A DNA stretch of 62,189 nt, filler included, from Collodictyon triciliatum (lineage: Eukaryota): the NCBI GenBank assembly GCA_043381765.1. It is 6 parts of 6 records of this genome, joined end to end, with 100 filler letters (N's around TTAATTAATTAA, not from the genome) between each part and the next. Parts side by side here need not be neighbours in the genome. Positions count along the whole stretch, not along the records: positions 37,406 to 51,375 come from JBHJMP010000199.1; 5 more parts are not named here. One strand, written 5' to 3'. The translations under genes were made by a program, and so were the position numbers. Below the pieces are notes generated by a model, which had not been told where the DNA came from, did not search any database, and worked only from the letters and a program-made list of their open reading frames with translations. Numbering within the stretch: the stretch's first letter is position 1; each line of letters starts with the position of its first letter. Positions 10,940 to 51,475 of this stretch are shown one piece after another.

Positions 10940-11049
10940 TGCGTATCGCGGACTGGCGGAGTTTCGCGCTCTGTGTTGTCCACGGGGTTGGTTTCGCTAT
11001 TGCTGTCGTTGGGATGGGGCTTTTTTTTTTTGTTTTTTTTTTTTTTTTT

Positions 11050-13600: not shown

Positions 13601-16600
13601 TCACATGCCGGGGAGAAGGTCATCTCCAAGGTCCGCGCTGCCGAAATCATCATCGTCCAGACTTTGCTATTTATTTATTTATTTTGGTTGAAATCGGAAT
13701 ACAATTCCACATGAAGCCGAGGCAAGATATACAAAAGAAGAAAAGATGAAGACAATAATGAAGCAAAGAATGCCCGATGACCAGACCTTGATTTTGGCGT
13801 GTGCTTTGGGTCTATCCTCGGCAATGGCACCGGAGACATTGAGTGCTATGTTTGTGTCGGCCATTTCTAAGGCAACATACCGTAAATAGGATTGCAGATA
13901 GAGCAGGGGAAAAGGGGTTGAAACCCTGAGGCAGGTGAATCAGGGTGTGCAAAATAGATGAAGCAAACGTGGAGCAGGGGCTGGTGCGGGTTCCGGCTCG
14001 GGCTCTTGATTGCGGACAGAGCTCATACCAAAATTGCGCTCGTCGAATATGTCTTGTGGAGCGTCAGCCTGCATTTTAATGAGATTCATTATGAACAGGA
14101 TAATTTAAGTAGAATGTGTTGTCTCAAAAGCAGATGAAAAAAAGAAGAAGAAAAGAGTCATGTGTGTGTATCTGGGTTGCGGAGTAACCTCGTCTTTCTT
14201 CTTTCGAGATTTACGGTCGGTCTTCCTCTGTTAAGTTACATTTCATTTATCAATCAACAATGTTCAATGATATCAAGATAGAGTGAAGTAAGATTATAGC
14301 CTTGACTATGATTCCAAACAAGTCATCAGCACCGTTTCCGGTTGTATATGCTCTCGTTCATACCTGCGCGGCTGCCTGTGCCTTCGCCTCTGCAGCTCTT
14401 TCTGCTTTCTTCAGGCGTGCAACGTATTCGTGAACCTCATCTTTCATTCCGAGGTCATTACATATGGCCATGAGATATTTCAAACCTGTTTTTTTTCCGC
14501 CCCAAGAAATAAATAGTGAGTCATAAGCATATGTAAGCAACAGCATAAATTTTGAAAGAGAATGATTGAAACTGGATATATTGCAGGACATCAAGAGCCA
14601 AAATAATAAAAAATAAATATATGTACATTCAACGTTTTCGGGGAACTTCTCATGTATTTGTTGGTAGGTCTCCAATGCTTGTTGGTATGAACCCATTCTG
14701 CGATAGCAGCTAGCAACCTTGTGATTCAATTCCATATCAAGAATAGACGACACAGAAAAATGAAGGAATATTAGGGAAATAAACTAATGTAATAGACACA
14801 TAAATATAGAAATTGGTCACCATTAGCCTCCAGCGTGGGTCGAGAGTCTGGATAAGAGCCGCTTGCTCAAAGTAGTGGATAGCTTTTTCATAAACCTCAT
14901 TCTTGACATAGTATGCACCTAACCATTGAATTACCTCCATATTGACGGGATATAGCTTATAAGCCTGTGGGAGTTGAGTTGACAAGTCAGAGTGATAAAG
15001 CATTCGAGATAAATTACGGATTAGTGAGAGATGATATTTGAGTTTGCTTAGAACGGTACATCGGTGTTGTAGTGATAGGCCTCACTTTCGTCATCTTCTT
15101 TTACATAGATATTTGCTAGTCTGGAATTAACGGATTTTGCCTTAGCCGTTTGGGATGTATGATATTTAAACAAGAGCATATACCACATATAAAGTTTATT
15201 GATTTATTTCATTTTTTTAAAAAAATTATATAAACAACGAAAAACCTTGCTAACACGCCTGGGTCAGTCGGCAGAACAGTTGCCAATTGCCTGAAATACT
15301 CTGATGCTACCTTGATGTTTCCAACGGCCTCAGATCTATTCATATACAAGATGTAAAAATAAACGATATCCATACAATATAATGATAAACATGAATAACT
15401 AAATCTTATTATGTTGCTAATATGCCATGGCCGGGGTGGGTTATTACATATCTGCGAGTTGAAACAGGACTTCTGGGTGAGATGGAAGAAGTGCAAGTAG
15501 TTTTTCAAATCGCTCTGTGGCCTCGTTGAATTTGCCCAATTTTTTATAGGATAGTCCTGCATAAGGAATACTCCGATTCACATGGATGCCTTATCTTTGG
15601 ATATATATATAAGAGTAGATGATTACCCAAATTGAAAAGCCCTTCAATACAATCAGCCTCTGCTTTGACAGCTTCGAAGTAGAACTCCTTTGCCTTTTCA
15701 TATTCAGCACGTTGGAAATGAATGTTTCCCTTATTCACCAGTGCTTTGGCGTTGTACGAGTCGAACTACACAAAGCACAAAGTTTTTTTTTAAATGTGAG
15801 AGCTTTTATGTACAAATTATAGTCAAAACCATTGGTCTGATGTACAATTTAAACTGCTATAAGTTTCACAAAATTTTGACGGCATTACCTGAAGTGAACT
15901 ATCAGCATATTTCTCAGAGTTTTTGAAGTCTCCTTCGAGGTAGTATAAAAAGGCCAGATTCGTTGATGCGATACCAGCAAGGCTCGCATCTCTCTTTTCA
16001 AATTGCTTGAGCTGTTCAATTGCCTAATATTCAATTCAATGAAAAAATCAATTAAAAATGGAGTGTTTTATGTTAAATCGCATGTAACACAATACAGTCT
16101 GCGAGTTTAAATCCAAAGAATAAACCTTGTCAAACTTCTTGGAACGAAGAAATTGTGATGCCTTCGAGATTTCTAACTGATATGATTACAACAGAAGAAT
16201 ACATTTAAAATAAAAATATGTTCAGACAAAGTTGCCATATGGAATGCATTACATTCTACTTGTATGTTTCATAAAATAATCATAAAATGATAAATCAGGA
16301 AACCTCGTTGATAACGGACTGGAAAGCGGTTGACCTCAAACATTCGATTATATAATCAACACCACCAACATAATCCTTCTCGATAACAGGAGCAATAAGC
16401 TTTGATGCATTCAGGACAAATTTGTTGGCCAGTCTCTGCCTGTATGAATGAGTGTAAACGTTAAGTATATCACTGTATTATATTGTTGCATGTGCAGCAG
16501 CCCGAGCCATTTGCTGTAACTGAGAATATAGCACCATTTTCCCCCTTTATTCGGTTCAAAGTGAGAATATAGCACCATAATAGCTCCATCAAGAGCAAGT

Positions 16601-19055
16601 GATGATAAACTTAATAAGCGAAATAAATGCAAGAGCAGGAATAGAAAATAGGGGTGAAAAAAAAAAGATAAGAAAGAACCTCGCTCTTATTTCTCTTTTT
16701 AAAGCCTCATCATGAAGAAATTCATCATCTGTGCCAGCAATCTCATCCTCCTCGTCATCGCCACCGAGAGCACGGATGCTGACGAGCTTTTCGAAACTGC
16801 GCTTCATCTTTTCTTTATCTCCCAATGCATAGTAGCACACAACAAGATTAAATCCTAAAAAAAAAAAAATAATGAAGAAAATGAAGAAAATGACGTAAAG
16901 AGAAGAGAATGAAATGATACCCATATAGATCAATTATTTATTTTTATACAAAAAAGAAGTCATTCTTGATATAAAAAAAATTTAGCTACAAATACCTGTT
17001 CTAAAATCCGGAAGCCCCTCCATAATTGTTTCATAAGATTGTACCGCATCAGCGAACTGGCCGAGTTTCACGAAAGCATTTCCAATATTCCTCATTATTT
17101 TGAACCTGCGAGTGTTCAAATAAGATTTTTGGTAAGTACTATTCCCATATGCAGTTTCTCTTTCATTTCTTCTTTCTTTTATTTTGGTATAATAAAATAA
17201 CAAGATTCGTGTACAAAAGGAGTACTCATATTCATATAATTGTAATAATATGCCCTTAGTGAAAAGAAAAAATATTGTTCATCAGTAACCTTATTTCCTT
17301 TCCAGTATTCGGAACTTGATCAAGAGCCATTCTGTACATTTTAATTGCAGACGGATATTTCTTTTGCTCATAGTAGATATTTCCCATATTGACACGAAGT
17401 CGACCAGACTGATTTATGAAAAAGAAAAACAGCCATCAATAGTTTATCCATGAATAGGCAAATCGGTCGTGAATTATGATCCGATGATTATCATGTTACA
17501 ATAGAAAGTAAACATTTCAAAGATGGTATATCATCTATGTGCAAAATGATTGAGAACCTGTGCATATTGTTTATTCCGAACAATAAGGGAATAGGTAGCC
17601 AGTGCGTCCTCGAAAAGCTTATTTGTGTGGTATTGACATGCAAGATTCAGATGCACGGCATATGTAAGGTCTGGATTGATCTGTTCACTGCAAATGTAAT
17701 TTTATCAATAAAATAATGATGATAATAATGCTAATAATATCAATTATACCAATAGTAATAGGGTAATCTCACATCTAACAAATATATGTGTAAGAAACAA
17801 AATAGCAAGACACCGTCGTTCTCGCTATGCAGTCAATATCGAATGTGCAATTTCTTCAACTTTGGTACAGCAGGAAAATAAAACTTCAATAGGATATAAG
17901 TCTGATACCTTAACCCATTGGACTCACGATATTTACACAAGCTACGCTCGAGTTTCCCAGCTTCCTTTGCCTTATCCAACGCTGCGCGCAGATTGCTTTC
18001 ATATCCGGCCATAGCACTCTCCTCGATCAGCACATTCACCTTCTTTTCCATGTCTTTTGCCTGCTCCTCTGGCGAACTCCGGTCAGGCTTCTGCAAGGGA
18101 GCAGCAGCTCCTCGCCCTTCAAACAACACTCAGGTTTAATACATAGACATCTACGCATTTACATTAATCCATTTTTACTTCACGAGCACAAACATTGACA
18201 CAAAAAAACACAAACATAAACATAAAAATAAACATAAAAATAAACATAAAAATAAACATAATATAAACATAAACATAATATAAACATAAACATAAAAATA
18301 AACAAAAAAACACAAAAAAAACACACAAAAAACACAAAAAAAACACACAAAAAAAAACACAAAAATAAACACAAACACAAACACAAATGAATGGTTATCA
18401 AAAAAGAAAAAAAGAAAGACATATTCAGACCTCCAAGAGGGTCCAGTCCCTGGCGATTGGCATTGCGGTTTCCTGCAGACGAATACCCGGCTGCACGCAC
18501 ACTCGTCATCGGTCGGTCCTCGCCTCCACTCGTTGCTGCAGCTGTGCCCATTCGTGAGCCGACGCCACGTCGCGAGGCTGATTGGCGGCCGCCTGATGTG
18601 GCTGGTGCGCCGTATGACGAAGCAGGGTTCGGCGCCGCATAGAAAATGTCGTCATTATCGTAGGCAAATCCTGTCTGTGTAATCCTGTTAGCTTCATTGA
18701 TGCTTCAAGGCTTCAGTTCTGCTCTTTCGATTGTCAATTTGAGTTATAAGGCAGGTATCGTTACATCTCGCGATGTTTGAAGATATTGTTGAATATGTTG
18801 AGAATATTGCTGGTGTGTACAAAAGGAAAGAATGCATAAAATAGTTTTGGTTGAAGAGACATTTCTACGACGATAGACATGTAAATATGTTGCTAGATAA
18901 ATGTAAACCAGAAATAATCATAATCATAATCATAATCATAATCATAATAATCATAACAATAATAAAAGTGAAGCTACAGCCCCAACCTGCAGCGGGACAT
19001 ATCCTTGTTGCTCAAAGCCTCCATAGACATCGTCTTCGTCTTCACCTCCGTACAT
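13601..19055 (-). CDS. IFT88: Intraflagellar transport protein 88 (TPR protein), complete multi-exon gene
   Basis: Starts MYGGEDEDDVYGGF. Contains RPMTSVRAAGYSS, ALDKAKEAGKLER, GRLRVNMGNIYYEQKKYPSAIKMYRMALDQVP, KIMRNIGNAFVKLGQF, WLGAYYVKNEVYEKAI and VASCYRRMGSYQQAL. Ends DDDFGSADLGDDLLPGM*. All junctions are GT-AG and in phase. Confidence 0.97.
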
Positions 19056-19905: not shown

Positions 19906-22900
19906 CTAATCTGAGTGGCCTGGCATTTCAGGTTTGCTGGCTTCGTTGGGTGCTGCTGTTTCAGGATTTTCTCCAGGCTTGTCTTCGGTAACAAGGGTAT
20001 CCTTTTTCTCTTCAGCAGGTGGCGCGGTCTCTTGGGGGTTGATTATTTTTTCATCCGTGCCTGGTGTCGGTGCTGGTTCTCTCTCCAGCTCAACTGTCAC
20101 ATCTCGAGGCAGGTCTTGCGCTTCGAAGGTCTTCTTGTAGTCGTGTATCAGCATCCTCTTTAATTTTTTATACATCTTTCGAACCTCTTCATCCTGATGG
20201 TGGCGGAAATCCTTAATTGAGAGTCCAAGTTTGGTTTCCTGAGATTTCATTTAGAGTAAGGTTAGCACAATTGTTAGGAATAATTATTTTCATTATCAAA
20301 GAATTCTTACTATGAGTAGCTTGGAGTCGTATTTCAAACCAAGCATGATTGTGAGGGTCGACTTCAGTTTAGGCAGATTCTGCACGTTAAAATTTAAATA
20401 TATGAAGACTTAACACAACTGGTACAATACCAAGTATGATGTTTCCAGAGTCATAAATTTTCATAGACTTAGTTTAGAGCTATATACAAAAGGAGAGTAG
20501 AGTACATTGAAATGAAATTGAAATAGAGAATTACTTCAGGTTTGGCTTTATTGTCATCTATATCTTTCATGAATTTTTGGACCTCACCAAGGGTTGCCTC
20601 TGAGGTAATAAAAAAATCGTCAGATATTTATAAATTACATATATTTCTCTTTTTCGTCACTTTCAGCAATAAAATTCAATTGTCTTAACGATCAAAAGCG
20701 AAGTGAATATTGGAGCAACCTTGTCTTGAGGTATCATCCTGCTTCTTGTCAGAAGATTCTGCATTTTCTGTGGCTTTCGAAGCATCTTTCTGTGTCTCAG
20801 AGGTCTTTGTAAAATCGAGAATTAATCTCTTCTTTAACTTTTTGTACATCTGCCGAACCTCTTCGTCTTGATGGTGACGGAAGTCCTTAATTGAGAGTCC
20901 AAGTTGCGTTTCCTGCGATTTCATTTATAGAAAGGTTAGCGCGATTGTTAAGAATAAAAATTTTTTTCATTATCAAAGAATTCTTACTATGAGTAACTTG
21001 GAGTCGTATTTCAGACCAAGCATGATTGTGAGGGTCGACTTCAGTTTAGGCAAGTCCTGTATGTGACACGGACAAATCGTGGTAGAGTCAAAGTAAGATA
21101 CGGATTATTTCTCTTTAAATCGAATACAGGGGAAAAAATACAACTTCTATCAAAATTAATATAGTAAAAAAAATAATTTTTTTTTAATACTTCGGGCTTT
21201 GGCTTGGATGACTCGATTTCACGAAGTAGCTCGTGGATTTCAGTGACAGAAGTTTCTGCAAAGAATAATGTTGATTATTGGAATTACGGGTAAATGATGA
21301 CAACGAGAGCTGTAATCAAAAAGAGATGGTCAGACTACAATTATAATTCTAATGTGTTTTTGAAGAAAATTACATACTTTTTCTGGGTAAAATGTCAAAG
21401 TTTTCATCGTCCGAATCCTTTTTGTCTCCCGCTGGTTTCTTTTTATCTTTCTGATTTCCTTTTGATTTGTCTTTCTCAATCACTCTTGATGTGGTTGGCG
21501 TAGCTGTCAATCCAGGCGGCATTGATTCATCAGGGACATGAGTGTTCTTTGATGTATCAACAGTTTTTGATTCTTTAGCCTCCAACTTACGCTTTTTTGA
21601 CTTTTCCTTTTCATCCCCTTCGAGCTTTTTTTCTTTGTCCCTGCCTTTGGAAGTGTCTGCAGACTTTCCGATGGAGCTTGATTCATTTTTGGTGTCTTTT
21701 GATTTTTCTTTGCTTGTCTCCGTGGACTTCTCGTCAGACTTTCCTTCTCCCTTTCTGGGAGTCTCTGGTTTCTCTCCGTTTTTTGTTTTCTCTTTTTCCT
21801 TCAATGATTCATCGGCTTTTGTTTTCTTGTTTTCTTTTTCTTTTGATTTACCTTTCTCCTTTTCTTTCGAGCCATCTGTAGATTTGGACTCACCCCCTAC
21901 GCCTTTGGCTTTTGACTCCGAGGGTTTCGATGCAGATTTGGTTTCTTTCTCACTCTTACTAGGCGCCTTTTCAGAATCCTCTTTTCTGGACTTTGCATTC
22001 AATGAAGAGTTCTTTTCAGTGGCATTGCGTGCTTTGGGCGGAGTGTGCTTCTTTTCCTTTTCCTTCTTCTCTCCCTTCTCTTCAGATGCCTCTTTATCCC
22101 CAGATTTTAAGCTCTTACTTGATGACTCTTTGACTTGCCGAGACCTTGCCTGAGTGTCGGGAGATGTGCTCTTTTTGGGGGGGTCTGATTTGTCTCCTGA
22201 CTCAGATTCTACATGTTTCTTGGGCTTTCGTCCTCTTTTAGCACCTTCTTTCTTTTCCGACTTGGCACTTTGATTTTCTTTGGCGGAGGCTTTTTTTCGC
22301 CCTCTCTTCTTTGGTACCTTTGGGGCCTCTGGTAGGTTATCTTCTTTTGACAATTCTGTCTGATTTTCTTTAGCAGTTTCTTCCACTTCTTTCCTTTCGG
22401 CAACAGAGCCTTCAGAGCGCCTACGTCTCTTGCCCATGGCGTATATTTCTCGAAAGTCTCTTTGATTTCTCTTGCGGCCGCGAGATGAGAACGTAACTAT
22501 GCGGGAAGGTCCATCGTCTTCCTCCTCATTTTCACTTGAATCGCCTTGCTTATCTTTCTTTAGTGGTGTTCTTTTTTCTTTTTCTTCTATTTCAGATGAA
22601 GACTCTGTATCTGTTTCTTCTGAGCTGTCGTCTTGGTTCTCTTTCAGACCACTTGACTTGCCTGTGGATGCTTTTTGGCGTGGCTTCCTCTCTACAAGAT
22701 TTCTTCTTAGTAAGGGGCATCGGGCCCTGGAAATAATGACCAAATCAAATGCAGTCAATGAGAAGGTTAAGAATGGAGATTACTTATTGGAACAGCAGGG
22801 GCCTCGCGGACACGTCTTGTACGCTTTGGCTCCTCTTCAGTTTCACTTGATTCCTGCGATTGATCATCATCCGTGTCGTCATCTAACTCACTCAGCCCTT

Positions 22901-23500
22901 CATCATGTATGACTTCGACCTTGTCCAATCTTTTTTGCCGAGCAATTTTAGCGTATTTCATCGCCTGTTTTGACAGTATAATTAGTATTTAATTTAATTT
23001 ACATTACATGAATATCTCACGTGACTGTTATTTATATCCAAAAAAAAAAAAGGAAGAGACAAACCAAGACAAAACGAGACGAAAAGAAAGGACAGGAAAA
23101 GAATGAGTAGTGTAAAATATCGTTGAAAACTACAGGTCCCGTCCAAGATGAATCTACAAACCTCTGCATATGCGTGGCGTCCTGGCTTCGCGACATAGTG
23201 CGTCTCCCAAGTGCTGATGAGAGGGAACAGCTTCAACCCAAAGATCGCTGGCGAAACCCACTTGAAGTCACGCGATCCAAAGAAGCGGATGAGAAGAAAA
23301 GACGGATGGGTAGGTTCACAAGGTCGCTTTGGATGGGTAGGCGACATTATCTTGCCCGGCCAAATAGGATATCCTCGCATCTTCAGCCAGACAAGATCGC
23401 CTTCTTTCAGACTTGAGCCGCCCTCGACTCGCTCTTTGGGTGGCGGGTCGGCTGCCTTCTTTGGCTTCGGGCCTCGGCGGGACTTTTGACGAATGACCAT
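19906..23500 (-). CDS. PWWP-domain chromatin protein with long K/E/S-rich linker and two tandem TFIIS-N-like domains (LEDGF/HDGFL2-like architecture)
   Basis: PWWP: GDLVWLKMRGYPIWPGKI..IRFFGSRDFKWV. About 450-aa charged exon. Two copies of LPKLKSTLTIMLGLKYDSKLLI|ETxLGLSIKDFRHHQDEEVRxMYKKLK, matching the TFIIS N-terminal pattern LL.ET.IG..V..LRKH. Confidence 0.82.
20161..21060. repeat. Internal duplication of two exons plus the intervening intron (about 20161-20380 and 20834-21060)
   Basis: Direct alignment of the two copies, including introns 20239-20310 and 20913-20987. Confidence 0.92.
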
Positions 23501-25791
23501 TTTCTTTCTTACTTACTCCTTTTTATGTTCGTTTGGCGGCTCTTCTGCGTGCCTTGAGGTCTATTCTTTGCTTCTGTGTTTTATTGCACGATTCTTCTCC
23601 CTGGGAGAATAGCTTCGCACAAACTATGTCGCTTTCGTGATCTAAATAGGAGGAAGCAAAGTGAAATTCTACAGCTCTTTTTCAGCAGAAGTCCTCCGCT
23701 GGCTGCTTGATGACTCCGAGATGAGTGCATCGCAAGCATGTGTGGTTTGCATGCTTATTTGAATGGCATGACTGAAAGGACGAAGCAGGACAGAGATGAG
23801 GTATGTTGAAGACGTCTGCGAATGGGTCTCTGTGTGGTTTGATCGGCGCTTTGATCAGAGGCCGCGATTGTATGTGGTGGGAGGTTTGTGTCGTTGTCCT
23901 TCATTTGTTGCAACGTGCTCGGCAGCGAGAAAGAATATTAGAACGTTGGAGAGGAAAATATAAGGCACCCGCCCGGGAAAAGCTTACGTAACTTCTTTGC
24001 TAAATTTATGGATATTTATTTACTTACAATTATTTATTTGTGGAAATGATAATTTATCTAATTATTATTATTATCAAAGCATAATTTAGCTTGCATTCGT
24101 AATTAATTAATAATCAATGTATGATATATTATTATTTAGTAGAATTTTTTTAAGATGGCGGTGTTGCGGGGGGTAATTCCATATAAGAGCAGGAAAAATG
24201 TGTGCACCACCAGCGCATCTTTGCCAGAAGCGGAATGCCTTCACTTTGTGCATTTTCTCTTATGTCCGCGTTTCCCTCTCGCTTGTTATACTGCAATGGA
24301 AATTCGACCGAATTGGCCTGTTTTCCTTTTCAAACGCGTTTCTGTCCCTTTCTCTTTCTCTGTCTCTCTCGGTCTCTCTCGGTCTAAGCCTTTCCCAAAA
24401 GCCTGGTTGTTGGCAAATACGCCTTTGGAATTGCGTTGCGGGAACGAACCCACCCACTCTATTTTGTACTTCCACCAGCCANNNNNNNNNNNNNNNNNNN
24501 NNNNNNNNNNNNNNNNNNNNNNNNNNNNNNNNNNNNNNNNNNNNNNNNNNNNNNNNNNNNNNNNNNNNNNNNNNNNNNNNNNNNNNNNNNNNNNNNNNNN
24601 NNNNNNNNNNNNNNNNNNNNNNNNNNNNNNNNNNNNNNNNNNNNNNNNNNNNNNNNNNNNNNNNNNNNNNNNNNNNNNNNNNNNNNNNNNNNNNNNNNNN
24701 NNNNNNNNNNNNNNNNNNNNNNNNNNNNNNNNNNNNNNNNNNNNNNNNNNNNNNNNNNNNNNNNNNNNNNNNNNNNNNNNNNNNNNNNNNNNNNNNNNNN
24801 NNNNNNNNNNNNNNNNNNNNNNNNNNNNNNNNNNNNNNNNNNNNNNNNNNNNNNNNNNNNNNNNNNNNNNNNNNNNNNNNNNNNNNNNNNNNNNNNNNNN
24901 NNNNNNNNNNNNNNNNNNNNNNNNNNNNNNNNNNNNNNNNNNNNNNNNNNNNNNNNNNNNNNNNNNNNNNNNNNNNNNNNNNNNNNNNNNNNNNNNNNNN
25001 NNNNNNNNNNNNNNNNNNNNNNNNNNNNNNNNNNNNNNNNNNNNNNNNNNNNNNNNNNNNNNNNNNNNNNNNNNNNNNNNNNNNNNNNNNNNNNNNNNNN
25101 NNNNNNNNNNNNNNNNNNNNNNNNNNNNNNNNNNNNNNNNNNNNNNNNNNNNNNNNNNNNNNNNNNNNNNNNNNNNNNNNNNNNNNNNNNNNNNNNNNNN
25201 NNNNNNNNNNNNNNNNNNNNNNNNNNNNNNNNNNNNNNNNNNNNNNNNNNNNNNNNNNNNNNNNNNNNNNNNNNNNNNNNNNNNNNNNNNNNNNNNNNNN
25301 NNNNNNNNNNNNNNNNNNNNNNNNNNNNNNNNNNNNNNNNNNNNNNNNNNNNNNNNNNNNNNNNNNNNNNNNNNNNNATCTGGTATTATAAATCAAAGGC
25401 ACTCTTTCACATCTGCAGCCAAGAATTAATCACACTATACCCTACCTCTTCCCCCCTCGATTGTTTTGGTATATCTGAGAAGGCCGTCCTCCTGTTTTCT
25501 TTTGTTTTAAATGGGCCAACCGTTTTGTATCGCTGGTTAGCGATAAGACAGCCACTTTGATGAACATCTCATGTACCGGATGCAATCGGAGTCATTTCAA
25601 TCATGGCAGAAACATAAACAAAAAAAAACTTTGCTCTCCGATCATACAATCCACCACTCCTAATTTTCTTCCTTCTTTCCTCTCTTTATCATCGCCATGC
25701 AAACAAATCCAGTATCACAATCAGAATCTAATCCAAACAAAAAACAAAAAACAAAAAACAAAAAACAAAAAACAAAAAACAAAAAACAAAA

Positions 25792-25891
25792 NNNNNNNNN
25801 NNNNNNNNNNNNNNNNNNNNNNNNNNNNNNNNNNNTTAATTAATTAANNNNNNNNNNNNNNNNNNNNNNNNNNNNNNNNNNNNNNNNNNNN
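25792..25891. other. Artificial scaffold-join linker N44-TTAATTAATTAA-N44
   Basis: Six-frame stop 12-mer at 25836-25847 inside Ns. The same structure occurs five times in the window. Confidence 0.95.
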
Positions 25892-32140: not shown

Positions 32141-32240
32141 NNNNNNNNNNNNNNNNNNNNNNNNNNNNNNNNNNNNNNNNNNNNTTAATTAATTAANNNN
32201 NNNNNNNNNNNNNNNNNNNNNNNNNNNNNNNNNNNNNNNN
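32141..32240. other. Artificial scaffold-join linker
   Basis: TTAATTAATTAA at 32185-32196 flanked by Ns. Confidence 0.95.
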
Positions 32241-37305: not shown

Positions 37306-37405
37306 NNNNNNNNNNNNNNNNNNNNNNNNNNNNNNNNNNNNNNNNNNNNTTAATTAATTAANNNNNNNNNNNNNNNNNNNNNNNNNNNNNNNNNNNNNNN
37401 NNNNN
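37306..37405. other. Artificial scaffold-join linker
   Basis: TTAATTAATTAA at 37350-37361 flanked by Ns. Confidence 0.95.
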
Positions 37406-37633: not shown

Positions 37634-40600
37634 GGTTCTGCTGTATCAAGCACAAAAACTTGTAAGTTTTAGGCTGCTCAAAATTTTATACTTTAGACAT
37701 TAACTGTATATATTCCTTAATTGATATATTTCAAACAAATCGAAAATATATCTAAAAGGTTTTGCCGGGATATGCAAGACTCCAAAGTTTAAGTTGTGCT
37801 CAAACGGGGAGGAAGAAGAAATGGATGAAATTCGCCAGCCTGCAGACACTCCTTTCATTGATGCTAAATATGAGAGTAATTTTTCTCCCGATCTTTCTTT
37901 TCCTTAAACATAATGTTGTTTTTTCTCAATTATGAACACCATATTCTTAACTTTAGTTTTGTTGTTTCGTGAAGATTTGTTAGCATGACTAACTCAGTGC
38001 TTCGAGGAGATGTCTAATAAATAGTATTTATGATTATCAACATTTTAAATTGGACAGCCTCTTATCAATAACCTCTTTTTAAACCCGTCAATAGAGAAGG
38101 ACTTCATTCCAGAGTACATGAAAGAAAGAAGAGTGATAGACAATGAGTTAGAGGATGTTTTTAGTTCATCTCCATTCGAGGAGTTTCCTCTTTTTCGGTG
38201 AATGTCTATATTGCAGATTTTGACATCCCATTATATTTTCCTAGTATCATGCACCAAAAAAAAAACTTCATATATTTATTTTTCTGCGGTTGGAGTATAT
38301 CAGTTTTTGTATTAATTAGTTGTTTTGTTTTGTCTTGTTTCTTTGCTTGGATCTTAGAGGCGTCGCACTGGAGGATGATAATCCTTTCTCTTTCATTACT
38401 GATAAAGACTATCTCAGTCACTTGAATTCAGATATTTTCTCAGATGATTCGCGCCCAGTTGGTAAACTGAAGGTTAGACATCTAAATGTGCAATGGCAAC
38501 CCATTCTTTACATTCGTCTGTTCACCAAACATCAATATTTTGATACCAAAGCATACTTTTTATGTAGGGTTTTATTCGCACGTACCCTGCCTATTTGCCT
38601 GCCCCTCCGCCTGTTGTTGATATGCAAAAGTATCTTGTCCCCCAGAAATACATTATTCGTGCATACATTCTTCGTGCCCATAATCTGACCCCAGAAGACA
38701 ACGATGGTAGAGTACCAACTAATAACTATAGAGTTATAAAAAAAAAATTCAGTTGCTGGATATTAGAAATAACGAATTACAATTGATGTATGTAATTAAC
38801 TACTCATCAGACACTTTCTATCGCTAGGAATGAACGACCCATACATCGTTATTGAGCTGGATAAGAAGAAAATTAAGGATGATGAGAGCAGAAAGTCAAA
38901 CACAAACGACCCGGAATTCTACAAGTGCTATGAAATCGAGGCGAGTCTGCCAGGGGCGTCCATTCTGAAAATCTCACTTTTTGATTATGATGGATTTAGT
39001 GATGATGATTTGATCGGCTCGACCAAGATAGACTTGGAGACTAGAATGTACTTTTTATACATTTTTCTTTTTCTTTTTTATTTCGTATATTAGAGAAAAT
39101 AAACTTATTTATGCACATATTGCAAACCCCAGCTTCAACCCTGAATGGCTTGATTTGCCCAAGAAACCAGTGGAGTTTCGGACTCTTACAAGCAGACATT
39201 CGTCTGTTAGCCATGTATGAAGGCTAAATTGTAGCATCTTTTTCCCCCTTTATGTCAATTATAAGTAACTTAACCTTTTCTTCTATGAATCTTTTAAACT
39301 TGAATCTTTGCTAGGGTAAACTGGAGATGTGGTTGGAAATTATTCCTAAAGCTGATATCAAAAAGGTATTGCATATTAATTGATGAACATCGAAGCACGC
39401 CCAACGTCAAGATTAATAATCTTGTATTCACAGTTCCCGATGATTGACATATCCCCACCAGCCAAGAAAGATTTTGAACTCCGAGTAATTATCTGGAAGA
39501 CCAGATATGTCGAAAGTGAAGACAGTGTAAGAATAATCTCCTTGCTATGGTGAAAGAACGTCTATTAATTTTTTATTCATATCAAACGCATCGTTTATAT
39601 GCATGCACTTGTAGGTAACGAATCAAAACGACATGTATGTTACTGGTGAATTCTGTGAATCAGATATGCAAAAAACTGACATTCATCTCAGAGCGAAAAA
39701 GGGATATGGTAGTTTCAACTATCGAATGATTTTTCCGATCAAACTACCCATGAAAAATCCACGACTACGCCTTTCGGTAAATCTGCTCCTCCTTATCTTT
39801 ATCTTTATCATTCATTTCTCTTTTCTCCTCTTTTCTTCTCTTTTCTTCTCTTTTCTTCTCTTTTCTTCTCTTTTCTTCTCTTTTCTTCTCTTTTCTTCTC
39901 TTTTCTTCTCTTTTCTTCTCTTTTCTTCTCTTTTCTTCTCTTTCTCTCTTTCTCTCTTTCTCTCTTTCTCTCTCTGACTCATAAGTTGGATTTGAAGGTA
40001 TGGGACTTTGATATCTTCAAACCTAATGACATCATCGGACAAGCAGAGTTAGATCTCAGCGATTTGATGGATGTAAGAATTCACTACACGAGGGGAAATG
40101 GCAATCAATTTTAATTCAAGAAATAAGCAAGTAATGATTGGGCGACTAATTATTTTTTATTTTTGTGATAAAGGCCACCTTCTACAAGAAAGTAGCCGTG
40201 TCACTTCTTCCCGATCCCATGTGGCTAGATATCTATCATCCAAGCAAGGAAACCTCACGTGTAATTTACAAACTTTGCATTAACTATATATTTTAATAAT
40301 CTCACATCTTAATTCGATGTTTACTTTTTTTAAAAAAAAATATAAGAAAATATAGTAATAATAATAGTTCGATTCCAGTGAAAGAGCATGTTTACTCTTT
40401 GATAGAACTTCAACAGTCAGTGACAAACCTTCTTTTCTATTAACAGGGTCAAGTTCAAATATCAATCCAAATTCTACCCAAAGAGATGGCCACCTTGGCG
40501 CCCGCCGGCCGCGGTCGTGAAAGCCCCAACTTAAATCCCGTACTGGAGCCACCTGACCGCATCAAATTTGTATGGATTTATTTTAGCGTTTACGAAAGCC

Positions 40601-40870: not shown

Positions 40871-41441
40871 GCACAAGACATGAAAATGAGACAGGGGCCA
40901 CAACGGGACGAACGCCAAGCAAGAAGAAAGAAAGGACGAAGAGGGGGAGAAAAAATACTGGAAACTCGTTCACAACGGCCCATCAATCTCCAAACACCGC
41001 GCCTCAGCACGCATCACCACCAACCAATAAAAAGCAGAGAAAAAGAATCTATCCTACCTGTCTGTTCACATAAGGCGCTGATATGATTTACACAGAAGCG
41101 GCAAAAAACACGGAATCGACGAGCGATGCTGCATCAACGGCCAAATCAGTTCAGACCTAAGAATGAAACCTAACCGACCTGTCAAAAACACGCCCAAACT
41201 TTATACATAAATATGAAAGCATTCAAGTTCAACTGTGACAAACACAACCCCTGTGGCGCTGCGCAAGGGTGGGACTCACAGCGCGATCAACTAACAAGAA
41301 ATGGCACAATGGAGAGTATTTTTTCCATTCCTTTTTTCATTTTTTCCTTTTTTTCCCCTTTTTTTCTTCCTTTTTTTTTTTTCCCATCTTGTACAAAAGA
41401 CGGGCTCTGAAAGTCCTCCCAGACGCATAGGGCAATTACCG

Positions 41442-42119
41442 ATGGAATCGGCCCTCGACTGCCAAAACTGTGCCCAACTGGCTGCTGCTCTGGCCGCTGA
41501 GCAGAGCGCTCACAACCGCACTCTCAAGTCTTTGGAGACCGCTCGGATAAACACAGCAGAGGCCAGAAACGCCGCCGATCAACAAAGCGCCGCGGTCAAA
41601 CAGCTCCAGCGCCAGATCGACGAGTTGGAGGCTCGCCTCAAGGCAGCCGAAGGGAAGCTCTTTGATGCGACCACAGATCTCTTGGAAGCTCGCATCAAGG
41701 GCGATCAGCTTGCTGTTGTCCTGGCCGATAGTGCGGCTCCAAAGTCACCCAGAAGGCAGTTTCCTGCATTATCGGTTTCTGCTCCCGTTTCTCCAAGCAA
41801 TGCGAGTCCGAGCGAGTTTGGGGCGTCTCTCACGAACGGACGCCAAAGACATTCATCTGCTTCGCTCAACCCAAGCGCGCCGCACTCGCCCAGAATGCCC
41901 CAGTTCGGCCCGCCTTCCGTTATGTCTGTCCCGACATCGCTCGCTGCCCCGAGTGCAGCCGACGAAACAAATTCTGCTTTCCGGACAGACTCTGAGGTTA
42001 AAGTTGCTTTTTTTTCTAATTTATCCTTTTCACTCTCTCCATTTTTTTTTCATATTCCTTCATTTTTCCTTTACTCTTCCTTTATTTTTCGGTTGTTCAT
42101 GTTGTTGTCTTTTCATTTC

Positions 42120-42212
<93 letters not shown>

Positions 42213-42312
42213 NNNNNNNNNNNNNNNNNNNNNNNNNNNNNNNNNNNNNNNNNNNNNNNNNNNNNNNNNNNNNNNNNNNNNNNNNNNNNNNNNNNNNNNN
42301 NNNNNNNNNNNN

Positions 42313-42369
<57 letters not shown>

Positions 42370-42571
42370 AACATGGCTTATTTTCTATGACCTTGTATTT
42401 ATCCTTATCTCTGTTACATTTGATTTGTTCAATTTCTATGTGACATCGTATGTCACCATCATTTTTTCATCCACTTTGTATGCTTGACTTTTTTACTGTC
42501 GGTTTTTTTTTGTATCCTTTTGTTTAAAATACTACTTACATTATCTGTTGTATTATTTACCCGGTGTCCCT

Positions 42572-42646
<75 letters not shown>

Positions 42647-45600
42647 GCCTTAATATTGTGTTGCATTTACCAATACTCACAAAAAGGATAAAGTAAATAC
42701 TCTGTGAGTTTGAAATGGCTTGCTGAATTCTTCAATACCATTCGCAGGTTCATAGCATGGCCAATCAGCCTATTGAAGTACTGACGCCAAGATCGCGCCC
42801 GATGAACAATAGCGCCATGCGTGTCAGGGCCAATACTGAGTTTGGTGCACAAAGTGGTGGAAGTCCATCAAATCTGATGGCAAAAATGGCACTGATAGCG
42901 GAGGAGGATGAACTTGTGGATTTGGCAACAGATGCAAAACAGGAAATCAAGCGAGAGAAATCAAAGTCCGTGTCTGTTTCAACATCAATGTCCAATGCGT
43001 TGGTGGGCATCGGAGTCATCTCAAATCCAAAGGATGATGCAACAGAAAGGCTCATAGAAAGCTTCTCTCGTAATTCTTAGAAAACTTATCATGCATGGCT
43101 TTGATATTTATTTTTATTTTATTTTTTAATTCAATAAGATGATATGGTTCTGTTAATAATTGAGGTTTTCATCCTTAAGGTTCTAGTAGCATGAATTAAT
43201 ATAGCATTGAAAATACAGAAATTATCAGAAGTTTTATCTTATTTTATTTCTTTTAAAAGCACCGGTGATACTTCAAACTAGCTTTCAGAATCCATCCAGA
43301 AAGCAATCAGGAGGAACTGTTGTAAGCTATTAGCTTATACTTATAGCATTTTTTTTCAATATTGCCTCAGCTTTATTTATAGTCCCCCCCCCCCCTTTAT
43401 TTATATATTCGATTCAAATAAGCTGTTAATTGTTCCTGATTGTTCATTGATTTCAAACTCGGATGTGCAATATAGAAAGTTGTCAAGAAAGGGTATATTC
43501 TCAAAAGGACAGATGGTTTGATTAGATCAACAAAAAGGTTTTGGGCTGTGATTGCCGGTTGGAGGCTATATATGTTTGCTTCAGAAAATGTTTGTAGTTC
43601 AAAAAATGAATATTCATTATACCTTTAGTTTTCTGGTATAATTCAAATTTAAATATTAAATTGTACTTGTACCTCTATTTCTCCTGTCTCTCGAAAAAAA
43701 ATATGCATGTATCACCAGTTTATAAAATAAAATGTTCAAAATTAAAAGGACCTCGAGTTTGTTGAAGAATTCGACCTTTGCCATACTACTGTTCAAGTTC
43801 CCTTTGAAGGAGAGGATGACGGAAAGGCCTTTCATTTATTCACCCCTGGAAGATTTTCATTCTTTGTTTGTAACGACGCTGAGGATAGAAAATCTTGGTT
43901 GGGGATAATAGAAAATCTCAGCTGGGAAGGAAAAATTCTGCTTGAATCCAGCTTGGTCAGTTATGTTTGAAAAAGCTCTTCCTAGATTTTTAATTAAGTT
44001 ACCATTCATTTTATGTAGTATACAATATCTTTCCTTACTTAACTTTTTTAATCACTTTTGCTAAAATTATGGGTATAATGACTCTGGATTGTGCAAAAAA
44101 AAAAAAATTAGAAGGTGCCAAATACAACCACACAGAGACAAGGATATCTTTTGGTAGTCAAAAAGAAATCATCTACATCCACCCAAGATTTAAAATGGTG
44201 TTTCATCTCAGAGGGTGTTTTTGGGTATTTTAAAGGAGCAAAGGTAACAACATGCCAAAATCCCTAATAAAATTTCTTATTTGAAAATTCAATAAATCAC
44301 ATATTGAACATGACTGAAAATGCCTGAGCTATACACAAAACAAATTTTCATTTCATTTCATTTGACAATATGTAGAGCAAAAAGGATTTGAAGATTATTG
44401 ACCTTTCTCGGGCAGACTTTACAGCGACAACAAAGAGTAAAAATTATGAAAGCACATTTGCACTCCAGTCGGGTCCAGAGATGTTTATTTTGACAGGGAC
44501 TTCAAAAAGGGATTCTGAAGCCTGGAAGTCTGTCATTACTTGTTGCATGGATAAGGCTAAAGTGAGGCTTACTCTAGAAATCAGTACCTTGCGGTCTCAA
44601 TGATTTGAATCTCTTTAAATGAAACTTTAATAGAATCTAGTATTGCTCTGCTTTTCTTGTATCTTTAGCAAAATTTCAGCTGATTTGCATACATATTATT
44701 CATATACTTAGACGTCCGCAAATGACCCTGAGTATTGGCAGGGGTATCTTAGGAAAAAATCAGCAAGTTTCTTGTCTAGGTCGAAAGACTTTTGGTATGT
44801 TGTAAAAGAGGACAAACTGACTGCCTACTCTGGCGTTAATGTACGGATTTCAATTTTATTTTATTTTATTTTATTTTATTTTATTTTGTCAGCTGTTGGT
44901 TGTTTTCCTTCCGTATATCTATACTATTCGATTCATTGGTGTTATCGAAGAAACCCCAAAATAATAGAGATTTGCCTCTATTCAGATTCTAGACGCCTTA
45001 TATGCATTTGATCTTGATGGTGCGAGTGTTCGAGTCGTGGAAAAGTCCGGCTTTGAGTTGCTTCTAAAAGACTCTACCACTGTGTCATTATCATCACCCA
45101 ATGTCGATGAATTACAACGTTGTATCGAAGCTATTCAATTGACAATCAATCGAATTAAGGTTCCTTATTATTTTCTTCATTTTATTTTTAATTTAATTTT
45201 TTTTTATAGTTTTGCCATTCATTTATTGTGTGTTTTGAATGTACATTATTTAATGCTTCTCGTGGCCTTTAAGATGAAGCATGCGGGTGTCATTCGCAAA
45301 GGATTCTTAAATTTCAAGAAGGAAGACACGAGCAGAACTAAAAAGCATGATTTCAAAAACTGTTGGTTTGTTTTAACCAAGGATACGCTGAGTTACTACA
45401 GGCAACAAAAGGTGTTTTTTTTTATTTCTGCAGAGGCATTTTTTTTTCTCTTAATTGATCCAAATAAAGTAACAAATTGAACTATTTTTTTCGAAAAGAT
45501 ATACTCGCTTCAAATAATCTGAACGATGAAATTGTAGGATCAAAAGCCAAAGAAAGCGTTGAATTTACTGTCTCTTCGACTTTCCATTCCTGAAAATTAC

Positions 45601-46729
45601 CAAGAAGAGTGCACATTTTTGATACACACATCATCAGGGGTATATCTCTAATACAATCGCTATGTTTTCGAGACTCAGGCACCCTTATTGGTATGTGCGT
45701 AACATGGGCCTCTCTTTATTTTACGTCTACGTAGACTCTGCGAATAGTGGGTGCGGATGGGACCGTGATATCCCAGTGGATTGAAGATTTGAGAACTTCT
45801 ATCAACTCTCTGGAGTTAGATGCTCGCCGGAAAAAGAGAGAGATGATTTCCAACCAAAATAGATGTAAATAACGCTACCAGCTATCCTGCACAAACGAAA
45901 TAAACAAAAGGAATAGTTAAAATCGAATTTCTTCATATTTAAATTTACTAATTTCGATCTTTTCGTGATTGCAGCGAATCCTGCTATGTTTATGGATTCC
46001 AGACGTGCATCTTCCCCGCTAAATCAATTTACCATGTTGAATCTACAAGAAGATGATGGTTCTGTAAAGAAAGTCAATGCAAACAATCCTATCGAAGAGG
46101 TAAAATATACCAGAAATACAGATTCTGCACGGAAAGGATATCTTTGTATATTTATCCTACAAATGCGTTGATGTATAGGAAAATATGAAAGACTTGGAAG
46201 ATGACAGGTACAGTGTGATTAAAGAGGAAGCCGAAGAAGGTCCTACAAAGGATGAGAATATGCGACGCTTCAGTCTCCCAATCAAGCTTGATTATAGGGG
46301 CTACAGGTTTGTCTATAACTAAGGACATCGTGTAGAATATGCATATTCTCCTCGGATGATCAGAATGAAGCCATCGCTTATATTTATACGATAATTTGGA
46401 TACAACATAATAGATTCATTTCATGGTTTTCCTTTTGATTTTAGAATCGTAGAGGACTCTCCAATTGTAATTGATAACGGATCTAGTTACCTCAGAATTG
46501 GTTATTCAAAAGAGGAACTTCCTAATGCTGTTTTTCCGTCTATGGTCACCTACAATAATTTGGAGAATGTGAGCGAATTCTATGTCGGATATAACGCACA
46601 AAGACAGGTTAGTATATGATAGCTCTTATGGATTAGTATTGTCTTGCTTTTGATTACCATATTATTATTTGCCTATCTTCACTACTTTATCAAAAATTAC
46701 TATACGTTATGAGGTTTGAACTTTGTCAG

Positions 46730-46766
<37 letters not shown>

Positions 46767-48699
46767 TAATTTTTATTTTTTTTTTTAAAAANNNNNNNNN
46801 NNNNNNNNNNNNNNNNNNNNNNNNNNNNNNNNNNNNNNNNNNNNNNNNNNNNNNNNNNNNNNNNNNNNNNNNNNNNNNNNNNNNNNNNNNNTTTATTATT
46901 ATTTTTTTTTTTTGCTTTTTTTTACTTTTTTTTAAAAATTTTTTTTTGTTTTTTTTTTTTAAATTTTTTATGCTTTTTTTTTTTTTTTTTGTAGGAAATA
47001 TAACATCATTATATTACCCCTAAAAAAAAAATACTGATTGTAACAGCAAGCCATCCTTGGATGTCCACCTGTGTACCCGTTCAATCCTGGGAAAGACACG
47101 AATTGGGATGCCGTTGTTGATGTGTACAATTATTTGTTGTCAAATGAACTAGGCATTCACGCCAACAATTATTCTGTATGATTTAATTTTAAAAATTGAA
47201 GGGATGGAACTGTATAATTATCTATCACCATATTTCATTGAGTTTGGGTCATGCAATCGCTACTAATACTTCGATGACAGTTTTTGCTTACTCAACCGGC
47301 GGGTTTCAAACCGGGAGACAAAGAAAAGTTTTTGGAAATCTTGCTCGAGGTCTTTGAAATGGGAGCAGTTCATATCCAAGACCCTGGACCTCTGCCCTTG
47401 ATTGCCGTGGGAGAATCAGCCGGAATAGTGGTTGATTGGGGAAATCGCCTGACTGTCAGTTTCATAACCATCGTCCACCCTCCAAATTCAATTGCAATAT
47501 TATGATTATTATTCTTACTATTATTTTTACTATTATTCTTACTATTATTCTTACTATTATTCTTACTATTATTCTTACTATTATTCTTACTATTATTCTT
47601 ACTATTATTCTTACTATTATTCTATTTATATATACATTTATTGCTTAGCTTTGTTTATTTTTTATATAAAAAAAATAATTATCATTCATCAATCAAAATA
47701 TCCTTCATAGGTTACTCCTGTCTACGACGGGTGTGTGTTATCTGAGGGACAAAAATCTACGGACTTTGGCGGTCGCCAGTTAAATTTATTCCTTAATCAG
47801 ATGCTGAATAAAGAATGTGGATTCCACATCCCAGCCAAGAAAGTGGATTTTGCAACATCTGCCATCAAAGAAAAGTATTTGCAAACCACTTCATGCCAAT
47901 TTTTATTGGCATTTCCTCATGAATCACCACACATCAACTTTCTATTCTGCTATTTCTTCATATAATTTATAGTTTGCTTGTTTTTGTTTTTGTTTTTGTT
48001 TTTGTTTTTGTTTTTGTTTTTGTTTTTGTTTTTGTTTTTGTTTTTGTTTTTCCTTCACTAACCTTCTCACCATCTACATGAATTTTCTTTGTCGTATCGA
48101 GGTTTTGTTACGTTGCTCTGGATTTCAATAAGGAGCTATCCGAGTTTAAGATCGACCGAAGAGCAATAAGAAAGGAGTTTACACTCGACAAGGGCGTCTC
48201 TGTCGCTCTGGATACGCAGCGCTTTCGTGTACCAGAATTGCTCTTCAATCCAACGCTTGGCGGGTTCGATGAAGACCCTGTACATACTTTGCTCAAGAAA
48301 GCTGTACAAGATTCACCCATAGATCTGCGCAGGGAATTATGTCAAAATGTCATACTATCTGGAGGGACGACGTTATTTCCTGGTTTGATTCTTACTTGTT
48401 TTCTTTCGTTATTTTCATAATCTAATCTTTCTTGAAGACATATCTATTCCGGATGATATCTTACAACGACGTTCGAATTCAATTTTAATTTACTTTCATA
48501 CTTAGGATTCTGTCAGCGATTACAAAAGGAACTGGCACATCTGACTCCCTCCATCCCACCCATTACCACCCGCACCGAAGGCCTTTCCAAGTATTTGACA
48601 TGGATGGGCGGAGCGGTAATGTCCCTTGATGAATCATTTGATCAGCTATGTATTCGAAAAGAGGCGTATCACGAGGAAGGCGTCAACCGCTTGATTTGA
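41442..48699 (+). CDS. Coiled-coil + four PH domains + C-terminal divergent actin-fold fusion protein (about 20 exons)
   Basis: PH1 KKGYILKR..KRFWAVI..DRKSWLGII. PH2 RQGYLLV..KWCFI..DSEAWKSVI. PH3 WQGYLRKK..FWYVV..ELQRCIEAI. PH4 RKGFLNF..CWFVL..LSYY..ISQWIEDL. Linker joins in frame (intron 46307-46444, phase 2) to PIVIDNGSSYLRIGY..PNAVFPSMV..YVG..TNWD..IKEKFCYVALDF..RFRVPELLFNP..IDLRRELCQNVILSGGTTLFPG..RLQKEL..WMGG..YHEEG; TGA ends at 48699. Confidence 0.85.
47506..47622 (+). repeat. Intronic (TTATTCTTACTA)n tandem repeat
   Basis: 12-mer array in an intron of the actin domain. Confidence 0.9.
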
Positions 48700-49093
48700 T
48701 TACCACACCACCTTCTTGATTGTTTCTCTGGTTTCATACCCTTAATTATTTTTTTAAAATATATATATATCACTGTTAAATGGTGAAAGGAGAATTTGCT
48801 CATGCATCCTCCATATCGCAACCCTATCTTTTTTATTCAAGAGAATAAGCTTTCAATCTTTGCTGATATACATAATGTCTCAAGTATAAATTAAAGTTGC
48901 ATACTATTGTCATTATTTTTTTCTTGCTTGGCCATACATGCTTTGTTTATTTGCTTATTTATTATTAATTTATTAGTATTAGTATTATCATTATTACTAT
49001 TACCATTATTATTGGTGTTTAAGAAAGCTGATAGAAAGTACACTTAATTGTGATGACGGCAACAAGTACGGTTTCACTAGGAACTATCTTAAT

Positions 49094-51375: not shown

Positions 51376-51475
51376 NNNNNNNNNNNNNNNNNNNNNNNNN
51401 NNNNNNNNNNNNNNNNNNNTTAATTAATTAANNNNNNNNNNNNNNNNNNNNNNNNNNNNNNNNNNNNNNNNNNNN
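51376..51475. other. Artificial scaffold-join linker
   Basis: TTAATTAATTAA at 51420-51431 flanked by Ns. Confidence 0.95.

Follow-up and report, generated by a model that had tools for sequence, protein, structure and literature searches.

The DNA analysed here, which we call the window, is a stretch of 62,189 nucleotides (filler included) from the genome of Collodictyon triciliatum (assembly GCA_043381765.1), and our subject is a gene on its plus strand, at 41442-48699, that encodes four tandem PH domains and an actin fold within a single polypeptide, the PH-actin protein. The window is AT-rich eukaryotic DNA (guanine-plus-cytosine (GC) content ~0.35) with many microsatellites and scaffold gaps.

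Gene structure

The gene model was built by direct reading of positions 41280-49000 on the plus strand, which yielded 20 exons and a coding sequence of 3609 nt (1202 codons) that stays in phase from end to end. All 19 introns, of 79-751 bp, begin with GT and end with AG, and the terminal TGA is the sole stop in the frame. The initial annotation had proposed some 20 exons chained in phase without a stop, and our reading reproduced this chain along with its start (41442), its end (48699) and the junctions 41996/42748 and 46306/46445. A survey of N runs confirmed its statement that 45275-46607 is free of assembly gaps, and the actin exon does, as it had noted, lack an ATG of its own ahead of the DNGS motif, there being no preceding Met in the stop-to-stop frame at 46395-46619. 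For exon 9, a candidate acceptor at 44968 was rejected because it inserts six residues that do not occur in the Diphylleia orthologue P0001 (described below); the acceptor at 44986 gives a junction that aligns to P0001 without a gap. An upstream in-frame Met at 41301 was likewise rejected as the start, as the frame would cross a poly-pyrimidine tract. Despite the N gap in intron 15, the joint between exons 15 and 16 is complete with respect to P0001 in the family alignment. The locus is one intact protein-coding eukaryotic gene (Table 1).

Orthologues in other CRuMs

A search for longer proteins with exon 19 gave a single match at E <= 0.001 among 108 candidates. This protein, P0001, is a complete, transcript-derived Trinity open reading frame (ORF) of 1390 aa from Diphylleia rotans (EukProt) with Pfam PH and Actin matches, and makes this collodictyonid (CRuMs) the source of the nearest database relative of the window gene. 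The spliced model aligns to it in one BLASTP segment (model 210-1202 with P0001 384-1380; 51% identity over 1001 columns, 1079 bits, E 0.0). Further relatives are a second Diphylleia paralogue (P0006/P0153, 1370 aa), with P0006 colinear at 34% identity over model residues 281-1201, and the Rigifila ramosa proteins P0002/P0003 (1490 and 1754 aa), with P0003 colinear at 33% identity over model residues 378-1202. Pfam yields only PH-type families and Actin in P0001, P0006 and P0003. These three and the window protein constitute the set of four to which the family counts below refer, and their alignment is unbroken over all exon junctions from exon 2 onward. At the boundary between linker and actin fold, ...LDYRGYR|IVEDSPIVIDNGSS of the window protein aligns without a gap to ...LDYRGYRQAQYSPIVFDNGSS of P0001.

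Two other species, Diphylleia and Rigifila, thus show the same order of parts in three ORFs derived from transcripts. Because these are colinear with the window protein, including at the linker/actin junction, and because the genomic frame is intact and in phase, we regard the fusion as no artefact of assembly or prediction, and the colinear orthologues substantiate the earlier proposal of one gene whose product runs from helix through S/P-rich spacer, four PH domains and charged linker to a full actin fold. A PH-actin fusion of the same design exists in CRuMs, and we define the corresponding family by four PH domains, a linker with an RRxSxP motif, and an actin fold with a PGPL hinge and a GNRL-type loop, all of which the window protein possesses. 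Word-index searches returned 1, 2 and 4 proteins at E <= 0.001, and at this threshold placed relatives of the PH array solely in Diphylleia and Rigifila. The exhaustive HMMER search took exon 19 (93 aa) as its sole query and drew on the best 150 of 2884 hits, such that distant relatives may be missed.

The PH array

Matches of single window exons to Pfam PH are weak, with a best E of 2.8e-4 and all under Pfam's cut-off. Pfam does, however, delineate four PH stretches in Rigifila P0003 (E 6e-38) and three in Diphylleia P0001 (E 2.5e-26), and exons 4-12 align one-to-one with the PH region of P0001 at 31-68% identity. Furthermore, an AlphaFold2 model of P0001 residues 494-1390 contains four PH folds, each of seven strands plus a helix, with most 10-residue blocks at a predicted local distance difference test (pLDDT) value of 72-95; the fold positions in Table 1 are part residues of this model. 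Together the orthologue matches, the predicted folds and the alignment uphold the four PH domains of the initial annotation.

A phase-0 intron interrupts each of the four domains at the identical alignment column, and phase is 0 at the inter-domain boundaries as well. Against 200 shuffles, pairwise similarity reached z values of 8.7 for PH1/PH3, 5.6 for PH3/PH4 and 4.9 for PH2/PH4, with the other three pairs at 1.8-2.8. The shared column and phase of the intron, together with similarity between domains in excess of the shuffles, lead us to conclude that a two-exon PH unit was duplicated in tandem to build the array, and since the four domains align one-to-one in three species, this duplication preceded their divergence.

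The linker and the N-terminal region

The linker of ~95 residues is acidic and, at pLDDT < 40 in the P0001 model, disordered; neither of the two linker fragments tested matched a Pfam family. Within it, RRxSxP is invariant in all four family members (RRFSLP, RRYSLP, RRNSVP and RRNSLP), ~20-24 residues ahead of DN(G)S, and is not present in the four nearest non-family proteins (P0083, P0049, P0021 and P0111). R-x-x-S/T-x-P is the consensus for 14-3-3 mode-1 binding and for basophilic kinases, and the family motif matches it as a putative site of either kind.

In exon 1, AlphaFold2 run on the single sequence predicts one 96-residue helix (residues 3-98, pLDDT 95-98) with the remainder disordered (pLDDT near 50). 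In one heptad register of the helix, 67% of a/d positions are hydrophobic, and residues 91-185 are rich in S, A and P, so that the heptad-rich helix and S/P spacer described earlier are recovered here as a predicted structure, a register and a composition. The idea of dimerisation stems solely from this predicted long helix. Exon 1 has a GC content of 0.587 and a CpG observed/expected ratio of 1.0; later exons have GC contents of 0.37-0.49, and the CpG ratio is 0.3-0.8 in most exons. This composition fits a CpG-island-like first exon. A Ser/Ala/Pro/Arg-rich open frame on the minus strand at 10364-10996, adjoining a 100-N gap, is similarly GC-rich (0.558) and has a composition like that of exon 1. 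GC-rich first exons without CpG depletion, followed by CpG-depleted later exons, may be the rule in the Collodictyon genome.

The actin fold

Pfam Actin matched five of the six actin-region fragments (E 4e-5 to 3e-17), covering profile positions 4-403 save for the part in exon 16, whose fragment (47044-47181) gave no Pfam Actin match. The orthologues match at 5e-68 (P0001, profile positions 3-403), 5.5e-69 and 1.3e-82, and the full-length actin fold originally proposed is thereby borne out. Identity to actin domains of conventional type (Colletotrichum P0067, Zingiber P0152 and the unnamed P0135) is 32-34%. In the numbering of the Colletotrichum actin P0162 (375 aa; DNGSG at 11, DSGDG at 154, GGTT at 301), the protein retains D11, N12, G13 and S14, K18 as R, K213 and E214, the SGGTT loop, K336, Y337 and W340. 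Changed are G15 to S, H73 to P and Q137 to P, the last within a PGPL hinge that is invariant in the four family members and found in neither actin nor the sister clade described below. Phosphate loop 2 reads DWGNRL-T in place of DSGDGVTH, with a one-residue deletion, G158 replaced by R, H161 lost and position 154 variable in the family. The D-loop is six residues shorter than that of actin, with its hydrophobic residues gone, and the C-terminus is four residues shorter. Conventional actin and the window protein accordingly have in common DNGS, K213/E214, SGGTT, K336, W340 and a Pfam Actin match over the whole fold, but the latter falls outside conventional actin by its low identity, G15S, Q137P, DWGNRL and short D-loop.

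The adenosine pocket (K213, E214, SGGTT and K336) is retained, and from these residues we infer that a nucleotide may still be bound there and that hydrolysis has been lost, making the domain a pseudo-ATPase at best; it is probably non-hydrolysing. The D-loop contact of normal F-actin would be unable to form, and for this reason actin-like polymerisation is not expected.

Placement in the actin family

A phmmer search of PDB sequences with the Diphylleia orthologue gave 165 matches, of which the best 60 are all actins (212-236 bits) with no Arp among them. The top match was 9wc4 chain 'HC1 actin' (236 bits), with other actins listed at ~212-219 bits. Trees were built from 50-53 actin-domain rows, to which the 52 hits aligning to at least 300 actin-domain residues were admitted; this sample is biased, as it consists of top exon 19 hits and includes no named Arps, and the C20 tree omits P0153, P0154 and P0123. 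The four CRuMs proteins form one clade, with Shimodaira-Hasegawa-like approximate likelihood ratio test (SH-aLRT) values of 94 (LG+G4) and 96 (C20 mixture), and this clade is sister (SH-aLRT 97 and 98) to P0083 from Mastigamoeba balamuthi and the environmental proteins P0049 and P0021. These three sister proteins (P0083 being an 882-aa 'putative actin') resemble the window protein in their DNGSS motif, their GNR[LM] loop with the one-residue deletion and their N-terminal extension, and their truncated D-loop is even shorter than that of PH-actin. They differ in being without PH domains, PGPL hinge or RRxSxP, and the extension of P0083 is proline-rich, of low complexity and without a Pfam family.

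A PH domain beside an actin fold is also found in P0111 (KAG8234451.1 of the dragonfly Ladona fulva), a 715-aa 'PH domain-containing protein' with one PH directly ahead of a divergent actin fold. Like PH-actin, it has a short D-loop and a phosphate loop 2 with the same single-residue deletion, but it has only one PH domain, a linker of 25 residues, no RRxSxP and no colinearity with the PH array; identity, confined to the actin part, is 29%, and on its long branch the protein has no settled position in the tree. The ESM Atlas, whose neighbourhoods reflect language-model features and not alignment, puts P0001 and P0111 beside arthropod-dominated clusters of ~1264 aa and ~1022 aa (scores 0.88-0.94), with Actin in 100% of members and PH in 76% and 61%, respectively. 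PH-plus-actin proteins thus exist unnamed in public data outside CRuMs, and they may or may not have inherited the fusion from a common ancestor with the CRuMs proteins. Other fusions among the matches (P0068, P0155, P0135/P0156 and P0058), some of which could be merged gene models, comprise protein kinase, coiled coil and actin (814 aa, an unnamed ENA record), ankyrin repeats and actin (1099 aa), actin with a C-terminal VWA/Sec23-like part (P0135/P0156, ~1130-1155 aa), and CRAL-TRIO with actin (fish, 1833 aa). With kinase-, ankyrin- and single-PH-actin proteins and the arthropod clusters in view, the premise that actin fusions are rare is weaker than the initial annotation supposed.

Among described fusions, the filactin architecture of Ist1-filamin-filamin-actin is, according to one source, limited to Amoebozoa, with examples in Dictyostelium and Entamoeba (PMC5859476), and another describes filactin as a long N-terminal multi-domain extension with a C-terminal actin domain highly homologous to conventional actin (PMC2441452). 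As far as these sources go, filactin and the window protein each place a multi-domain extension before a full actin fold in one chain, but the extension is Ist1/filamin in filactin versus a helix and four PH domains here, and the actin domain is near-conventional in filactin versus 32-34% identical to actin here, with catalytic residues lost and the D-loop shortened. Pfam found no Ist1 or filamin domains in P0001, P0006, P0003 or the exon fragments of the window. A full-text literature search returned no paper describing a PH-actin fusion, a provisional result as subscription journals and supplements lie mostly outside its reach, and agrees with the earlier failure to recognise a described family of this architecture; a term search of the text of a 2024 review of actin evolution found neither 'PH domain' nor 'CRuMs'.

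Table 1. Features of the PH-actin gene, in window coordinates.
Feature	Position	Strand	Evidence and remarks
Exon 1, codons 1-185: ATG, predicted helix, S/A/P-rich disordered tail	41442-41996	+	Phase-0 GT donor at 41997
Assembly gap (100 N), intron 1	42213-42312		(ATT)n on both flanks
Exon 2, codons 186-293: Ser-rich conserved block K/R-S-x-S-[IVL]-S	42748-43069	+	Family alignment; orthologue-conserved region starts (P0001 BLASTP from residue 210)
Exon 3, to codon 313: short spacer, conserved PP	43260-43321	+	AG/GT sites, phase returns to 0; aligned to P0001
PH domain 1: exons 4 (43476-43589) and 5 (43749-43955)	43476-43955	+	Weak Pfam PH in both exons; 44% and 40% identity to P0001; AlphaFold2 fold 5-108
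PH domain 2: exons 6 (44112-44243) and 7 (44376-44561)	44112-44561	+	57% and 31% identity to P0001; AlphaFold2 fold 115-215; invariant QRQGYLL
PH domain 3: exons 8 (44712-44840) and 9 (44986-45159)	44712-45159	+	63% and 43% identity to P0001; AlphaFold2 fold 221-316
PH domain 4: exons 10 (45274-45411), 11 (45538-45639) and 12 (45735-45864), long basic end helix	45274-45864	+	Pfam PH E 2.8e-4 (exon 10); 59%, 68% and 56% identity to P0001; AlphaFold2 fold 319-436
Charged linker: exons 13 (45975-46099) and 14 (46179-46306)	45975-46306	+	RRASSP codons 760-765; RRFSLP codons 821-826; LDYRGYR
Exon 15: start of actin fold, DNGSS phosphate loop 1, shortened D-loop	46445-46607	+	Pfam Actin E 6.4e-10; 74% identity to P0001; in phase with exon 14 (split codon AG|A = Arg)
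Assembly gap (100 N), intron 15	46792-46891		A/T-rich low-complexity flanks; 0 residues lost vs P0001
Exon 16: actin subdomains 2/1	47047-47175	+	60% identity to P0001; no Pfam match alone
Exon 17: hinge DPGPLP (Q137 to P), altered phosphate loop 2 DWGNRL	47281-47454	+	Pfam Actin E 5.8e-6; 79% identity to P0001
Exon 18: actin subdomains 3/4, K213/E214 retained	47711-47874	+	Pfam Actin E 4.3e-5
Exon 19: actin subdomains 4/3, SGGTT adenosine loop retained	48102-48382	+	Pfam Actin E 2.7e-17
Exon 20: actin C-terminal part KYLTWMGGA, TGA at 48697-48699	48506-48699	+	Pfam Actin E 1.5e-10

Other features of the window

Upstream of the PH-actin gene lies part of another gene with a C2-domain exon (39713-40114, plus strand; Pfam E 4.4e-5), and the interval between the two, at 40.9-41.4 kb, is pyrimidine-rich. 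On the minus strand, exons within 19906-23512 include a Lys/Ser/Glu-rich exon (a 469-aa open frame, 21370-22779) adjoining a PWWP exon (Pfam E 1.3e-13), as well as a weak TFIIS/Med26-type helical-bundle match (E 0.0054, 19906-20250); we take these together to resemble an HDGF/LEDGF-like chromatin reader. Several exons of a TPR-repeat gene (14358-16933, minus strand; Pfam TPR families, E ~1e-5) bear a putative resemblance, judged by eye, to the intraflagellar transport protein IFT88. Five identical constructs of 44 N, TTAATTAATTAA and 44 N occur at 25792-25891, 32141-32240, 37306-37405, 51376-51475 and 57008-57107, each between two different microsatellites and none inside the PH-actin gene. 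They look like an artificial six-frame-stop linker introduced by a scaffolder, marking joins and not measured gaps.

Discussion

The account towards which we lean, with some reserve, combines one gene, a duplicated PH array, a divergent actin fold and a mechanism in which these parts act together. The mechanism, like the seeding, capping or anchoring role suggested in the initial annotation, is a more tentative proposal, less likely than not although the one we prefer. In it, the PH array would place the protein at the membrane or at a cortical scaffold by avidity or through protein partners, as opposed to a single high-affinity lipid pocket, and the helix of exon 1 would pair two chains. The two actin-like domains so paired could present their barbed-end faces to conventional actin, such that filaments might be anchored or seeded from the pointed end, and RRxSxP, beside the actin fold, would serve as a switch. 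Arp2 and Arp3 are divergent actin folds which do not self-polymerise and whose barbed-end faces act as a template, and seeding here would follow their fashion. The analogy is one of function only, with two copies of the same protein perhaps paired by the helix; the window protein differs from Arp2 and Arp3 in its fusion to PH domains, its lack of partner subunits and its degenerate phosphate loop 2, and in having actins, not Arps, as the best 60 of its orthologue's 165 PDB matches.

A number of observations weigh against this account. High-affinity phosphoinositide binding by PH domains goes with a basic signature, K-Xn-(K/R)-X-R, across strands beta1-beta2. On inspection, the window protein has KRF (PH1), KWC (PH2), KDF (PH3) and KNC (PH4) at the beta2 positions, so that none of the four domains retains this classical motif, and its final Arg is missing in the three orthologues too. 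As such, membrane targeting is not predicted from sequence, and the phosphoinositide targeting put forward in the initial annotation found no support in this inspection. At the barbed-end cleft, Y143 is I or F, Y169 is C in two members and L349 is D, changes which weaken the step whereby the domain accepts an actin D-loop. The actin part of the P0001 model (residues 494-1390) was built on a 20-row alignment and has pLDDT values of 30-50; owing to this low confidence, our statements on actin surfaces derive from alignment alone. A Foldseek search with the same model returned actins only (TM-score 0.16-0.18 by query), with nothing for the PH array, and a complex prediction of P0001 1008-1390 with the Colletotrichum actin P0162, run without alignments or controls, gave a score of 0.02 and a mark of 0.34, values that speak neither for nor against an interaction. 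In addition, the gene model at the Collodictyon locus was read from genomic DNA, with transcript support coming from the Diphylleia and Rigifila ORFs, and in-frame Met codons in exon 14 (MKDLEDD, MRRFSLP) would permit a shorter, actin-only product by internal start.

Exon 1 calls for particular care. Its link to exon 2 spans a 100-N gap, and in relaxed BLASTP its residues 1-185 have no significant match of their own to the orthologue N-termini. The sole significant local alignment of the N-terminus (residues 17-300) is of low identity and extends into the conserved exon 2 block, and the other alignments of exon 1 are of low identity and driven by composition. The conserved block of the orthologues is nonetheless preceded by 380-900 residues, among which the Rigifila protein has an extended helical region of heptad-like character and, after it, an S/P-rich spacer. 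On balance we consider it probable, if far from assured, that the GC-rich exon 1 is the true 5' coding exon.

Of the competing interpretations, we judge as unlikely, yet deserving of the most attention, that of a non-cytoskeletal scaffold in which the actin fold is a structural pseudo-ATPase of some other complex, as in the nuclear Arp4-Arp9, with the PH domains as protein-protein modules and no effect on filaments. The loss of catalytic residues, the shortened D-loop, the want of the classical lipid motif in any PH domain and the family-specific, invariant PGPL hinge are all in keeping with such a role. The PDB search argues otherwise, placing the protein nearer to conventional actin than to any solved Arp (165 matches, the top 60 of them all actins with scores of 212-236 bits), as does the absence of nuclear-type domains by Pfam in P0001, P0006 and P0003. 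An anchor that co-polymerises with actin in the manner of filactin would draw on the comparable N-terminal extension (PMC2441452), the retained adenosine pocket and the many core actin motifs that persist. Filactin's actin domain, however, is given in that same source as highly homologous to conventional actin, and the present one is 32-34% identical to it, has lost six D-loop residues including hydrophobic ones, and carries Q137P and an altered phosphate loop 2. Given the low identity and the D-loop loss, we rate co-polymerisation somewhat below the scaffold.

The remaining alternatives concern the gene itself. It is conceivable that the PH and actin-like proteins are made separately, through a promoter or start lying within exon 14, where the in-frame Met codons would serve, or through termination after exon 13, where read-through of the donor meets a stop at 46169-46171. 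Splice sites and phases are nevertheless intact across exons 12-15, the linker motifs are conserved in all four family members, the three transcript-derived ORFs of the two other species cross the junction, and a separate gene would leave only ~13 bp from stop to start in a genome with introns of 79-751 bp; two products are accordingly very improbable. Least credible of all is an artefact or pseudogene, whether by mis-assembly across N gaps or as a decaying copy. Two 100-N gaps do fall within the gene span and the window contains many scaffold joins, but both gaps lie in low-complexity intron sequence with no residues missing relative to the orthologue, and 1202 codons run without a stop or frameshift.

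A bolder version of the pointed-end seed may also be entertained, though we think it improbable. Here, the PH-actin protein would be an ancient seed independent of Arp2/3, the coiled coil aligning two degenerate actin folds as the mimic of a short-pitch dimer, the four-PH array fixing it at the membrane or cortex and phosphorylation of RRxSxP, or 14-3-3 binding, acting as the switch; the fusion would be older than the CRuMs-Amorphea split, and the arthropod PH-plus-actin proteins would be its surviving animal members.

To our knowledge, work on actin-family proteins has nearly always dealt with single-domain subunits whose placement at membranes depends on other proteins. PH-actin combines targeting modules and a degenerate actin fold in one chain, and adds, provisionally as a protein we did not find described, to the actin-fold proteins with a targeting extension. 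As a practical limit, none of the organisms concerned is a genetic model, and each step in the function is an inference. Collodictyonids and rigifilids, which branch near the base of the eukaryote tree on its Amorphea side, have both kept the design. Should the actin-like domain make contact with filaments, the protein would be a built-in membrane-to-actin link, or a seed made of an actin fold; if it does not, it would be a new case in which a pseudo-ATPase scaffold has been made out of the actin fold. In both cases, the PH array is a clear case of domain-array growth through exon duplication, and the protein belongs to an undescribed 'GNRL-type', short-D-loop branch of the actin family that is present in Mastigamoeba as well.

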